A stretch of DNA of 63,642 bases, the filler included, from Scenedesmus sp. PABB004 (lineage: Eukaryota): assembly GCA_014905635.1 (NCBI GenBank). It is 5 parts of 5 records of this genome, joined end to end, with 100 filler letters (N's around TTAATTAATTAA, not from the genome) between each part and the next. Parts side by side here need not be neighbours in the genome. Positions count along the whole stretch, not along the records: positions 20,655 to 27,515 come from JABVCE010000076.1; positions 27,616 to 33,542 come from JABVCE010000077.1; 3 more parts are not named here. One strand, written 5' to 3'. Made by a program: the position numbers and the translations under genes. Positions 20,655 through 33,542 of this stretch are shown here, piece after piece. Under the pieces are notes generated by a model. The model ran no database searches. It saw only the letters and a program-made list of their open reading frames with translations, and had not been told where the DNA came from. The stretch's first letter is position 1. Each line of letters begins with the position of its first letter.

Positions 20655-21669
20655 GCGGCGCCGCGCGGCGCAGCGCTGCCGGGCGCCGTTCCCCTGCCCC
20701 GCCGCCCCTGCGGAGCGGAGGTGCGGGGCTCCAACGGGCTGCCCGGCACGCGCTGCGCCGCCGAGGTCCGCCGCCGGCGGCCGCGCCGCGCCGCGGGCCG
20801 CGCGCCGCCCGCGCGCGCGCCGCTCGCCGGCGCCGCGGCGCAGCGCTTGCCGGGCGCCGTTTCCCCTGCCCCGCCGCCCCTGCGGAGCGAGGTGCGGGGC
20901 TCCAACAGGCTGCCCCGGCACGCGCTGCGCCGCCGAGGTCCGCCGCCGGCGGCCGCGCCGCGCCGCGGGCCGCGCGCCGCCCGCTGCGCGACCGCCGCTC
21001 GGCGGCGCCGCGGCGCAGCCGCTGCCGGGCGCCGTTTCCCCTGCCCCGCCGCCCCTGCGGAGCGGAGGTGCGGGGCTCCAACGGGCTGCCCGGCACGCGC
21101 TGCGCCGCCGAGGTCCGCCGCCGGCCGGCCGCGCCGCGCCCGCGGGCCGCGCGCCGCCCGCGCGCGGCGCCGGCGGCGCCGCGGCGCAGCGCTGCCGGGC
21201 GCCGTTTCCCCTGCCCCGCCGCCCCTGCGGAGCGGAGGTGCGGGGCTCCAACGGGCTGCCCCGGCACGCGCTGCGCCGCCGAGGTCCGCCGCCGGCGGCC
21301 GCGCCGCGCCGCGGGCCGCGCGCCGCCCGCGCGCGCGCCGCTCGCGCGCCGCGGCGCAGCGCTGCCGGGCGCCGTTTCCCCTGCCCCGCCCCCCCTGCGG
21401 AGCGGAGGTGCGGGCTCCAACGGCTGCCCCGGCACGCGCTGCGCCGCCGAGGTCCGCCGCCGGCCGGCCGCGCCGCGCCGCGGGCCGCGCGCCGCCCGCC
21501 GCGCGGCGCCCGCTCGGCGGCGCCGCGGCGCAGCGCTGCCGGGCGCCGTTTCCCCTGCCCCGCCGCCCCTGCGGAGCGGAGTGCGGGGCTCCAACGGGCT
21601 GCCCCCGGCACGCGCTGCGCCGCCGAGCGTCCGCCGCGCCGCCGCGCGCCGCCGCGGGCCGCGCGCCGC
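20655..21669. repeat. Very GC-rich tandem satellite, ~170-175 bp monomer, about 6 copies
   Basis: The motif CGGAGCG(G)AGGTGCGGGGCTCCAAC recurs at about 20711, 20883, 21058, 21228, 21398 and 21572. Confidence 0.95.
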
Positions 21670-22032
21670 TGATGAGAGTGCGTGTTTTCGGCCGCACACT
21701 CACCCCATTGCGTGCATGGAGCCTAAAGGAAGCTACTCGGAACATTGGGCCTTAGTTGGGCTCTTGTGGAAGCTGCTAACCGCGGTGGGAAGCTGCTTAC
21801 GGCGCAGCTACGGCAGCCGCCGAGAAGCTGCGATTACCGATACCGTTTCGGCTATATAGCTCCGTGCGCCCGCCCCGTTTGCCTAAGGAGTCTCTTCACC
21901 ACACACATGTAACCTTTGCTCCTTCACTCGTGTCTCCGTGCTCTCCGTGCTCTCTCGTTGGCCAACCGCCGCTCTCCGCCGTTGTCGACTCGCTCCTCTA
22001 GCCGGCAACAACCGCGCCTACTCCGACCAAGA
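21670..22032 (+). repeat. 5' LTR of copy 1 (TG...GA)
   Basis: TGATGAGAGTG...CTCCGACCAAGA. Contains a TATA-like CTATATAG and a TGTAA. Confidence 0.92.
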
Positions 22033-22047
22033 GGTCATGAGCCCATC
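22033..22047 (+). promoter_or_regulatory. Primer-binding site, half-tRNA(iMet) type
   Basis: GGTCATGAGCCCATC directly follows the LTR and resembles the GGTTATG(A/G)GCCC PBS of Ty5 and Drosophila copia, with one mismatch. Confidence 0.7.
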
Positions 22048-30700: not shown

Positions 30701-33510
30701 GGTGCTCACCTACATGGAGAAGCAAACCGACGCCCACGTCAAGGCCGTCCGCCACCGACAACGGCTCCGAGTACGTCAACGCCGACCTCTCCGGCTTCTT
30801 CAAGGACAAGGGCATCGCGCACCAAAAGACCATGCCCTACACGCCCGAGCAAAACGGCACGCCGAGCGGCTCAACCGCACGCTCCTCAACAAGGTGCTCC
30901 CATGATCTACGCGCCGAGCTCCCGCCCCGCGTGGGGTGAGGCGATCATGACGGCCAACCACCTCCGCAACCTCTCTCCCGTGAGCGGCAAGCCCAAGACG
31001 CCGTTCGAGGCCTTCTTCGGCCGCAAGCCCGACGTGTCAACGCTCCGCGTCTTTGGCGCCACGGCCTACGCCCACGTGCCCAAGAGAAGAGGACCAAGCT
31101 CGAGCCGCACGCCGAGAAGGGCATCATGGTGGGCTACCCGGCCTTTGGCAAGGGCTACCGCATCCTCATGCCCGACGGCAACATCAAGTCGAGCCGCAAC
31201 GTCGTCTTCGACGAGAGCAAGGTGCTCTCCAAGAGCTTCGCCAACTACAAGTCCCCGACGCTCATCGACCCCGACATCACCCGCTATGCCCCGAGAAGTT
31301 CCCGGCGGACGACGCTTTGAGGACGAGCCCGACTCCGGCGCGCACGACGGCGCGCCGCCGAGCGGCTCCCCGCCGGGCACCCCGGGCGGCCCCGCCCGCG
31401 AGCCCCGGCGGCTCCCCGCCCTCGAGCCCGGGCGGCTCGCCGCCGCCCGCGCCGAGCCCGCGCCCGAGAGCAACGACAACATGCCGGCGCCGACGCCGGC
31501 GGCACCGACTCCACCACCGGCGGCACCATCACGCGCTCGGGGCGCGTGTCGCGCAAGCCCGGTGAGTGGTGGGAACGCCGCCGCCGCCGCGCACTACGCG
31601 GGCAGATCTTGCCCGACCCGGCCACGCGCACCGAGCGCTCGGCCGGCTCGACGCGTCCAAGTGGGACGACGCCATGAACGAGGAGATCGCCGCCCACGTG
31701 GCCAACAACACGTGGGAGCTCGACGTGCCGCCCGCCGGCGTCAAGATCATCCCGACCAAGTGGGTCCTCACGACAAGACCGACCTCGCCGGCAACATCGA
31801 GCGCTACAAGGGCCGCATCGTCGCCAAGGGCTTCCACCAGATCGAGGGCATCGACTACGACGAGGTCTTCGCCCCCGTCGGCAAGTACGCCACGCTGCGC
31901 GCGGTGCTCGCGCTCGCTGCGGCGCACGACTACGAGATCATCCAAATTGACATTAAGAACGCCTTCCTCCAAGCAACCTCGAGGAGGAGGTGTGGATCAG
32001 CCAGCCCGAGGGCTACGACGACGGCTCCGGCGCGCGGTGCCGCCTGATCAAGGCGCTCTACGGCCTCAAGCAGGCCCCGCGCGCGTGGCACTCGCGCCTG
32101 CACGAGGAGCTCACCAAGATGGGCTTCGCGCCGTCCAAGGCCGACGCATCGCTCTACGTCGGCACCTCCGGCGCGTACATCCTCATCTACGTCGACGACA
32201 TCCTCATCATTGCGCGCAACCCGCGCTCGCCGAGTCGGTCAAGGCGGAGCTCTTTGCCGCCTTCAAGACCCGCGACCTCGGCGAGGTGAGCCAGTACCTC
32301 GGCATGCACATCACGCGCGACCGCATCAACAAGACCATCAAGATCACCAACGAGAAGATGTGACCGAGCTCGTCTCCAAGTACGGGCTCGCCGACTGCGC
32401 GCCCCGCGACATCCCCGTGAGCCTCGGCACCAAGCTCACCAAGGACAACGGCGACCCGCTCGACACCGTGGCCTACCCCTACACGTCGCTCGTGGGAGCG
32501 CTCCTCTACCTCTCCATCACGGTGCGCCCCGACATCGCCTTTGCGGTGCGCGCGTTGACGCGCTTCATGTCCTGCCCCACGACCGTGCACTGGGGCGTGG
32601 CCAAGGGCGTGCTCCGCTACCTGGCCGGCACCACCAACATCGGCATCATCTACGCGGCATCAAGGGCAGCCTGACCTCAACGGCATGTGTGACTCGGACT
32701 ACGCGGCCGACCTCGACACGCGCCGCTCGACCACCGGCTACGTCTTCACCCTCAACGCGCGCAATCACCTGTCCAGCAAGAAGCAGCAGACCGTCGCGGC
32801 CTCCACCACCGAGGCCGAGTACATGGCCGCCTCCGCTGCGGTCAAGGAGCCCTCTGGCTGCGCAAGCTCATGAGCGACCTCAAGTCAACATCGGCGCCAT
32901 CGACATCCTCTCCGACAACCAGGGTGCGATCAAGCTGCTGCGCAACCCCGTGTCCTCGCAGCGCTCGAAGCACTTGACGTCGCGCACCACTTGCTGCGCG
33001 AGCGTGTGGCCCGCGGCGAGGTCACGTTCCACTACGTGCCCACGGCCGACAACATCGCCGACGCGCTCACCAAGCCGCTGGCGCTGTCCAAGTTTGTGGC
33101 GTGCCGCACCGGCATGGGCATGGTGTGAGTTTGCTCCGCGTGGGAGTGATGAGAGTGCGTGTTTCGGCCGCACACTCACCCCATTGCGTGCATGGAGCCT
33201 AAAGGAAGCTACTCGGAACATTGGGCCTTAGTTTGGGCTCTTGTGGAAGCTGCTAACCGCGGGTGGAAGCTGCTTACGGCGCAGCTACCGGCAGCCGCCG
33301 AGAAGCTGCGATTACCGATACCGTTTCGGCTATATAGCTCCGTGCGCCCGCCCCGTTTGCCTAAGGAGTCTCTTCACCACACACATGTAACCCTTGCTCC
33401 TTCACTCGTGTCTCCGTGCTCTCCGTGCTCTCTCGTTGCCAACCGCCGCTCTTCCGCCGTTGTCGACTCGCTCCTCTAGCCGGCAACAACCGCGCCTACT
33501 CCGACCAAGA
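27736..33510 (+). mobile_element. Full-length Ty1/copia LTR retrotransposon, copy 2 (same family), target site duplication GCCGC
   Basis: LTRs at 27736-28089 and 33147-33510; PBS from 28090; GCCGC at 27731-27735 and 33511-33515; the satellite resumes to 33542. Confidence 0.96.
29023..33128 (+). CDS. Copia gag-pol polyprotein, copy 2 (many single-base indels)
   Basis: Same motifs as copy 1, for example [17 protein letters not shown] and STTEAEY. Most indels are at different positions from those in copy 1. Confidence 0.9.
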
Positions 33511-33542
33511 GCCGCCGCGCGCGCGCCGCTCGGCGGCGCCGC

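Follow-up and report, generated by a model that had tools for sequence, protein, structure and literature searches.

Two element copies in a 172-bp satellite

We analyzed a 63,642-nucleotide stretch of DNA (the window) from Scenedesmus sp. PABB004, a green alga of very high GC content; its telomeres are TTTAGGG repeats, and one contig is plastid DNA. The window consists of five contigs joined by N44-TTAATTAATTAA-N44 spacers and belongs to an assembly of 39.97 Mb in 80 contigs (GCA_014905635.1). Window positions 20655-27515 (contig C74) and 27616-33542 (contig C75), which are separate short contigs that do not adjoin, each carry a Ty1/copia long terminal repeat (LTR) retrotransposon in the same orientation (copy 1, 21670-27479; copy 2, 27736-33510). 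Both copies lie inside a 172-bp tandem repeat (satellite A), where a GCCGC duplication of monomer positions 152-156 borders each one, and an earlier note on this DNA had described both copies with the same duplication. Contig C21 opens with 984 bp of the satellite, followed by the same element at the same junction (C21:985-6803). We interpret the window copies as one insertion and the family as a young, centrophilic Ty1/copia lineage that targets the centromere domain with behavior resembling that of Tal1 of Arabidopsis lyrata, a reading to which we assign a probability of roughly 0.75. The features of the two copies are as follows.

20655-21669, + strand: satellite A, 172-bp GC-rich monomer, ∼5.9 copies of the C21-type monomer variant, start of C74
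21665-21669, + strand: left target-site duplication GCCGC (monomer positions 152-156), with the right copy at 27480-27484
21670-22032, + strand: 5′ LTR of copy 1, 363 bp, TG...GA ends
22033-22047, + strand: primer-binding site of copy 1, fitting the anticodon arm of the host initiator-type tRNA-Met with one mismatch
22973-27096, + strand: gag-pol region of copy 1 in the copia order gag, protease, integrase, reverse transcriptase (RT), RNase H, interrupted as assembled by single-base indels
25481-25528, + strand: CENP-C-like motif at the end of the integrase tail, copy 1
27116-27479, + strand: 3′ LTR of copy 1
27480-27515, + strand: satellite A resuming 3′ of copy 1, end of C74
27516-27615, no strand: artificial spacer between C74 and C75
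27616-27735, + strand: satellite A flank of copy 2, 0 substitutions compared to the C21 flank
27736-28089, + strand: 5′ LTR of copy 2, 354 bp, short majority type
27839-28323, + strand: foreign-haplotype tract of copy 2, element positions 104-597
28090-28104: primer-binding site of copy 2, the same as in copy 1
29023-33128, + strand: gag-pol region of copy 2, C21 haplotype, indel-rich as assembled
31525-31572, + strand: CENP-C-like motif, copy 2
33147-33510, + strand: 3′ LTR of copy 2, long C21 type, unlike the 5′ LTR of this copy
33511-33542, + strand: right target-site duplication and satellite A, end of C75

The element has paired LTRs, a 5-bp target-site duplication, and a single gag-pol frame (1376-1377 amino acids as assembled in 12 of 25 pieces) with Pfam domains gag_2 (49-187), Pol_BBD (315-392), rve (509-608), SH3 (667-736), and RVT_2 (899-1138); RNase H was seen by reading the sequence and has no Pfam row. 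Its named relatives are chlorophyte elements. The LTRs terminate in TG...GA or TG...GT, varying among copies, rather than in the TG...CA that is typical of copia LTRs, for which exceptions exist. Compared to the host tRNA-Met(CAT) on contig C77, the primer site provides a 15-nucleotide match in 5 of 22 copies, a single mismatch in 16, and an additional indel in 1; such a site at the anticodon arm of the initiator tRNA-Met is that of a half-tRNA-primed copia element of the Hemivirus type. The copies are polymorphic (C/T) at the primer-site base opposite the base 3′ of the tRNA anticodon, and our guess is that this polymorphism could arise from a modified base being miscopied during priming.

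The window copies most likely derive from one insertion

Between copies 1 and 2 there are 28 substitutions and 111 indels. Of the indels, 98 are single-base, so both C74 and C75 are poorly polished. The element of C74 exhibits only 7 substitutions over 5786 bases aligned with C21. Past element position 744, C75 possesses the C21 allele at 18 of the 21 sites that set C21 apart from the family; of the three exceptions, two adjoin indels and one is a gap. The first 743 element bases of C75 carry the family allele at 5/5 diagnostic sites (C21 allele at 0/5), along with private changes; the private alleles of copy 2 include those at 297, 460, 480, 499, and 581. Measured against the polished C21 copy, element positions 104-597 of copy 2 account for 13 substitutions and the other ∼5.1 kb for 14, of which 9 lie ≤6 bp from an indel. 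The differences that the earlier note listed are present (C>G at 27839, C>T at 28023, a 9-bp shorter 5′ LTR, and leader substitutions), and its statement that they exceed indel noise holds for the 5′ end but not elsewhere. The 5′ LTR of copy 2 is indeed shorter by 9 bp, but the short form is the majority one (27 of 40 full-length LTR matches) and does not represent a deletion peculiar to this copy; its 3′ LTR is of the C21 type. By comparison, 10 of the 15 LTR pairs examined lack any substitution. The satellite arrays possess array-specific variants, and the 120-bp flank of C75 is the C21-type monomer variant with 0 substitutions, whereas every other array compared has variants of its own.

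Judged from these sequence comparisons, the elements of C74, C75, and C21 most likely are one insertion, and the extra copies most likely reflect redundant assembly or local duplication. The 5′ LTR and leader of copy 2 would then have been replaced by sequence of another family member, which may have occurred by conversion, by unequal crossover, or as a read-correction or assembly chimera. No identical donor for this tract was found in the assembly, where the best other copies are 99% identical. The stretch over the foreign tract is seemingly free of indels in C75, but it is equally clean in C74 and hence uninformative on polishing. Among public sequencing runs, 17 of 21 listed rows contain part of the window stretch, with no RNA row among them. 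In contigs from four of the runs, the private alleles of copy 2 were absent where covered and no filled junction was present; these contigs neither confirm nor refute the mosaic because they derive from other strains and are collapsed. Of the two readings offered earlier, one insertion amplified as a satellite-plus-element unit was right in kind, the amplification being redundant assembly or local duplication, to which a 5′ tract of converted or chimeric origin was added. A site-specific integrase is not supported; the collapse to one locus (C21/C74/C75), which the earlier note had set as a refutation, has largely been borne out.

Mosaic structures occur elsewhere in the family. Target sites do not match at the C15 element or at the C45 tandem, and in C56 a left flank from one array is combined with a right flank from another. 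Two solo LTRs on C13, in the same phase and 1746 bp apart, show local amplification after insertion. The C45 tandem (C45:52156-68862) comprises three elements that share LTRs, with mismatched outer target sites (95-99 versus 52-56). Two C13 copies share a ∼400-bp duplication ahead of the 3′ LTR (C13:1658655-1659055 and 1667595-1667995) that takes in the first 44 bases of the LTR.

The family inserts at varied phases within satellite and LINE clusters

A pattern search of the assembly yielded 45 LTR starts and 43 LTR ends, all of which were fetched and mapped to give 19 insertion events: 14 in satellite A, one in a second satellite (satellite B, on C1), three nested in a long interspersed nuclear element (LINE) within arrays, and one at C6. 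The LINE-nested events have clean 5-bp duplications. At C6, the contig start cuts the element, which adjoins a LINE 3′ end with no satellite within 10 kb. Young copies are confined to tandem-repeat arrays, one per contig examined, and 18 of the 19 events are inside satellite/LINE clusters. The cluster DNA that was fetched totals 429 kb, a lower bound that equals ∼1% of the 39.97 Mb; by arithmetic, 18 of 19 events would fall there by chance with a probability of ∼1e-22 even if clusters made up 5% of the genome.

Target starts in satellite A map to monomer positions 22, 47, 52, 67, 67, 74, 74, 94, 95, 131, 140, 142, ∼145, and 152, providing 12 distinct phases among 14 events in both orientations (the phase of the C31 insertion is uncertain by ∼2 bp). 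In simulations, two exact phase pairs compared with 0.55 expected (P = 0.09), and no clustering was significant for pairs within 3 bp (P = 0.29), for a 26-bp window (P = 0.71), or for 10-bp periodicity (P = 0.40); these tests excluded the internal copies of the C45 tandem as well as C7:513-922, an LTR piece that has no junction. Nucleotide-specific and 10-bp-periodic targeting were rejected on these 14 events.

A young subfamily (C1, C31, C51a, C56, C63, and C71), with members 1-7 substitutions apart, spans four satellite-A phases plus satellite B. The C1 copy, which resides in satellite B, is 1-5 substitutions from the satellite-A copies on C31, C51, C56, C63, and C71. Satellite B (C1:1986619-2012272, with an 82-85% identical variant at C10:116001-124540) takes the place of satellite A on C1 and has the same 172-bp monomer length but little or no sequence likeness to it, the two being at most ∼70% alike (score of 104-110, versus 92 ± 7 and a maximum of 123 for shuffles). 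Since near-identical copies occupy two satellites that are alike no better than shuffles, sequence is not the cue.

A phase-specific integrase would instead require two independent insertions at monomer positions 152-156, one of which later recombined with the other. Exact coincidences do occur elsewhere in different array variants, at 74-78 (C7 and C13) and at 67-71 (C15 and C45, in opposite orientations); three young insertions share one orientation at 140, 142, and ∼145; and the private alleles in the 5′ tract of copy 2 match no assembled copy. Set against these coincidences are the 12 phases among 14 events with no significant phase test, the hits in satellite B and the LINE, and copy 2 itself, whose sequence is C21-type along 5.1 of its 5.8 kb, 3′ LTR included. 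We regard this explanation as very improbable and already largely refuted, although mild hot spots are possible. Base-precise targeting, had it held, would have been rarer still. The suggestion of a satellite- or centromere-targeted retrotransposon is thus well supported at the level of the domain and fails at the level of the base. With the window copies of single origin, the family sits at varied phases, is confined to clusters, and enters two satellites as well as the resident LINE; we infer that this confinement reflects targeting, in which the family would insert into a centromeric chromatin domain rather than at a particular base or sequence.

Satellite and LINE clusters are probable centromeres

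The satellite-B motif has 100 matches, all of them within a single array at 1.99-2.01 Mb of C1. This contig is 4.85 Mb long, carries a telomere at each end, and has no satellite-A motif match among the matches listed. The 62 LINE 3′ ends occupy one cluster per contig, and at most one cluster was found in each contig examined. At least 5 clusters are internal and at least 18 are contig-terminal, amounting to ∼14 centromere equivalents, compared to at least 30 telomeric ends; C15, C24, C31, and C77 each run from a telomere to an array. More arrays are possible, given that the first 100 of 688 satellite-A motif matches were listed and contig ends were fetched in part. This architecture suggests that the clusters are centromeres. 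The host centromeres appear to be satellite-based, unlike the transposon-cluster centromeres of green algae in the papers cited below, and we found no earlier report of satellite centromeres in green algae in the open-access literature.

The LINE that shares the arrays is an ∼8-kb L1-type element encoding an endonuclease and RT, with examples at the following positions.

L050:1986-10000: LINE
L053:1047-8962: LINE

Among its 3′ junctions in satellite A, 14 of the 25 mapped (not de-duplicated) are at monomer positions 32-39 on the minus strand, which is the only T run of the monomer. The LINE, not the copia element, is therefore the phase-biased element.

A CENP-C-like motif ends the integrase tail

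Downstream of the integrase SH3 domain, the tail of the copia protein is a low-complexity linker, judged from its composition to be disordered, that ends in a 16-residue CENP-C-like motif, in which an arginine anchor precedes a proline and an aromatic pair. Of 25 pieces, 22 carry the motif unchanged, one has a single substitution in it, and another is frameshifted. When a 28-residue stretch was searched against PDB, 7 of 7 matches were to human CENP-C residues 515-532 (best expectation value (E) of 0.0053), the partner of the motif stretch being CENP-C STVTKSRRISRRPSDWW aligned over 16-18 residues ungapped. An R...P-x-x-aromatic-aromatic pattern occupies the corresponding position ahead of RT in 56 of 105 homologues, compared with 11 of 1955 control windows, a count that is independent of how the peptide was chosen; the 105 are those with a usable anchor, 11 without an anchor and 4 near-self proteins having been dropped. 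In motif-bearing homologues, the two aromatic positions are W in 50/56 and 45/56, and the E/W/W columns vary far less than the pattern would have allowed, within a linker that is otherwise unalignable. The motif is spread across the RT tree down to ∼41% RT identity with several losses, and one motif-bearing cluster contains an Asterochloris protein. Whole-protein scans detected CENP-C_mid in 0 of 10 motif-less homologues. A protein atlas search using the tail returned unnamed clusters only, scoring under 0.9.

CENP-C binds by placing an arginine on the acidic patch of H2A/H2B while its tryptophans contact the hydrophobic tail of CENH3, according to passages of PMC7475651. The host CENH3 possesses such a tail, ending in GPVYGVASF where H3 ends in GERA, and its gene is located as follows.

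L122:1474-1611 = C76:895-897 kb: CENH3 gene, intron-containing, encoding a hydrophobic C-terminal tail

A second, divergent H3 variant is encoded at C46:832 kb. By analogy with CENP-C, the disordered integrase tail with its arginine-rich P-x-x-W-W end would dock on CENH3 nucleosomes, the arginine contacting the H2A/H2B acidic patch and the tryptophans contacting the hydrophobic CENH3 tail, and the docked tail would tether integration nearby at any phase. A predicted complex of the tail, H2A, H2B, and the final exon of CENH3 scored 0.17 versus a mark of 0.34, which gives no answer either way. This docking mechanism, drawn from sequence likeness, is a tentative proposal to which we give somewhat less than even odds.

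Several points weigh against the proposed centromere targeting or its mechanism. The peptide was picked post hoc, after its likeness to human CENP-C had been noticed, and the sole Pfam match of a 40-residue query, CENP-C_mid (E of 2.6e-4), scored 21.3 bits, below the cut-off of 27 bits. A 148-residue query retrieved CENP-C only at E of 0.33-1.8, amid low-complexity matches, and CENP-C_mid was detected in just 3 of 14 motif-bearing full-length homologues (E of 0.03-0.25), at the same profile positions. Searches for a host CENP-C cupin and KNL2 SANTA gave no match, which is not evidence of absence. The event counts are approximate because the arrays are collapsed and noisy and several copies (C15, C45, and C56) are chimeric. 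Copia RT matches of any family lie within ∼6 kb of satellite in 30 of 31 cases; because of this distribution and the few retroelements in the arms, the genome provides no dispersed copia control. Motif-less families also cluster, so clustering needs no motif, and purging of arm insertions may contribute to it.

At least two other copia families, represented by five RT matches, reside at or beside the same clusters (L090-L093 and C1:2017921). The four tails examined from these families have arginine motifs at the same place without the tryptophan pair, and tails of motif-less families yielded no match in PDB. These families bear on the possibility that a different cue operates (heterochromatin, generic tethering to the acidic patch, or arrays that are not centromeric), with the CENP-C likeness arising by convergence on a nuclear localization signal (NLS) or arginine anchor and involving no read-out of CENH3. 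That motif-less families with arginine motifs at the same place occur at the clusters is consistent with this alternative, as are the location of the critical Tal1 residue within a predicted NLS in the cited part of PMC11735389 and the modest statistical support for so short a motif. The uniformity of E/W/W among 56 homologues counts against it, as do the control tails that lack a PDB match and the position of the motif-less families mostly at array edges (4 of 5 matches) while the motif family lies inside. We consider a different cue a substantial possibility, though one that we would bet against.

Alternatively, confinement could arise by retention, with the family inserting broadly, selection removing arm copies from a compact genome, and gene-free arrays keeping theirs. 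Besides the 30 copia RT matches, most of the 33 RVT_1 matches are in or beside clusters, motif-less families included, as retention would predict. The copies are very young, however, as judged from the substitution-free LTR pairs (10/15) and the 1-7 substitutions that separate subfamily members; for arrays that make up 1-5% of the genome, retention implies the loss of hundreds of arm insertions, with neither a full copy nor a solo LTR left behind; 45 of 45 LTR starts are accounted for, and a few other retroelements do survive in the arms (C67:257 kb and C77:1.11 Mb). Retention as the whole explanation is unlikely, and targeting of the centromere domain remains our preferred interpretation.

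Other features of the window

A TTTAGGG telomere array at 9994-10229 closes the first contig of the window. Positions 33643-63642 are the AT-rich plastid contig C79, in which an rbcL-like frame begins by eye near 34040; a search of this stretch against a phage collection gave no match.

Significance and comparison with known systems

How centromere-seeking retrotransposons recognize centromeres is an open question. Centrophilic behavior is of a known kind; what is new, and amenable to testing, is the CENP-C-like tail of the integrase. A 16-residue look-alike of CENP-C, situated in the same place as the Tal1 determinant and conserved in a broad algal copia clade, provides for a cheap and direct peptide test; if the mechanism is true, presence of the motif would mark centromeric copia families and could locate centromeres in unannotated algal genomes. 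Our search of the open-access literature, which left subscription papers outside its scope, found no report of CENP-C mimicry by an integrase, a copia element, or a retrotransposon. More broadly, and again at somewhat less than an even chance, a widespread green-algal copia clade may target centromeres by kinetochore mimicry, with an integrase motif of the CENP-C type recognizing the acidic patch of H2A/H2B together with the hydrophobic CENH3 tail; lineages would then shift between centromere-seeking and dispersed habits as they acquired or lost the tryptophan pair, and the centromeres of this alga would be satellite-based, with two different 172-bp satellites on different chromosomes.

The motif itself resembles the CENP-C central region and CENP-C motif (PDB 6SE6 and 6MUO; PF15620; PMC7475651, cited in part) in having an arginine-rich stretch followed by P-x-x-W-W. 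CENP-C is a host kinetochore protein, whereas the integrase match is short and under the Pfam cut-off, and its binding is putative.

Among green algae, passages of PMC8226300 describe Zepp LINEs as centromeric in other species. The resident LINE is like Zepp/ZeppL in being an endonuclease- and RT-encoding element that is 5′-truncated, nested, and clustered at one place per contig; it is separate from the copia element and is likened to Zepp by domains and clustering only. Chromochloris zofingiensis and Chlorella sorokiniana have copia-rich centromeres, validated in C. sorokiniana by CENH3 chromatin immunoprecipitation (PMC11005252 and PMC8226300). Their centromeres are described as largely transposons, whereas here 172-bp satellite arrays are invaded by copia and LINE elements, and the cited passages of these two papers report no targeting motif.

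The CRM/Cereba chromoviruses that possess a CR domain are alike in that a tethered C-terminal module of the integrase is proposed to bind CENH3 chromatin (PMC11302176, cited passages). They differ in being Ty3/gypsy elements with a helical RARAK domain modeled as an H4 mimic and, in those passages, no linear motif of the CENP-C type.

The closest parallel is Tal1/ALE4 of A. lyrata, as described in the parts of PMC11735389 cited here: a young copia element in centromeric tandem repeats with 5-bp duplications, which enters satellites of differing sequence and belongs to a lineage with repeated gains and losses. The integrase C-terminus decides its centromere targeting, the binding partner being stated there as unidentified, and the specificity was mapped to a disordered C-terminal region that is the place of the motif in our element. 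The likeness is one of behavior, not of kinship with ALE, and CENP-C is unmentioned in the passages and supplements of that paper that were searched. Targeting by Tal1 is experimental, whereas here it is inferred, with a candidate docking motif visible in the integrase tail.

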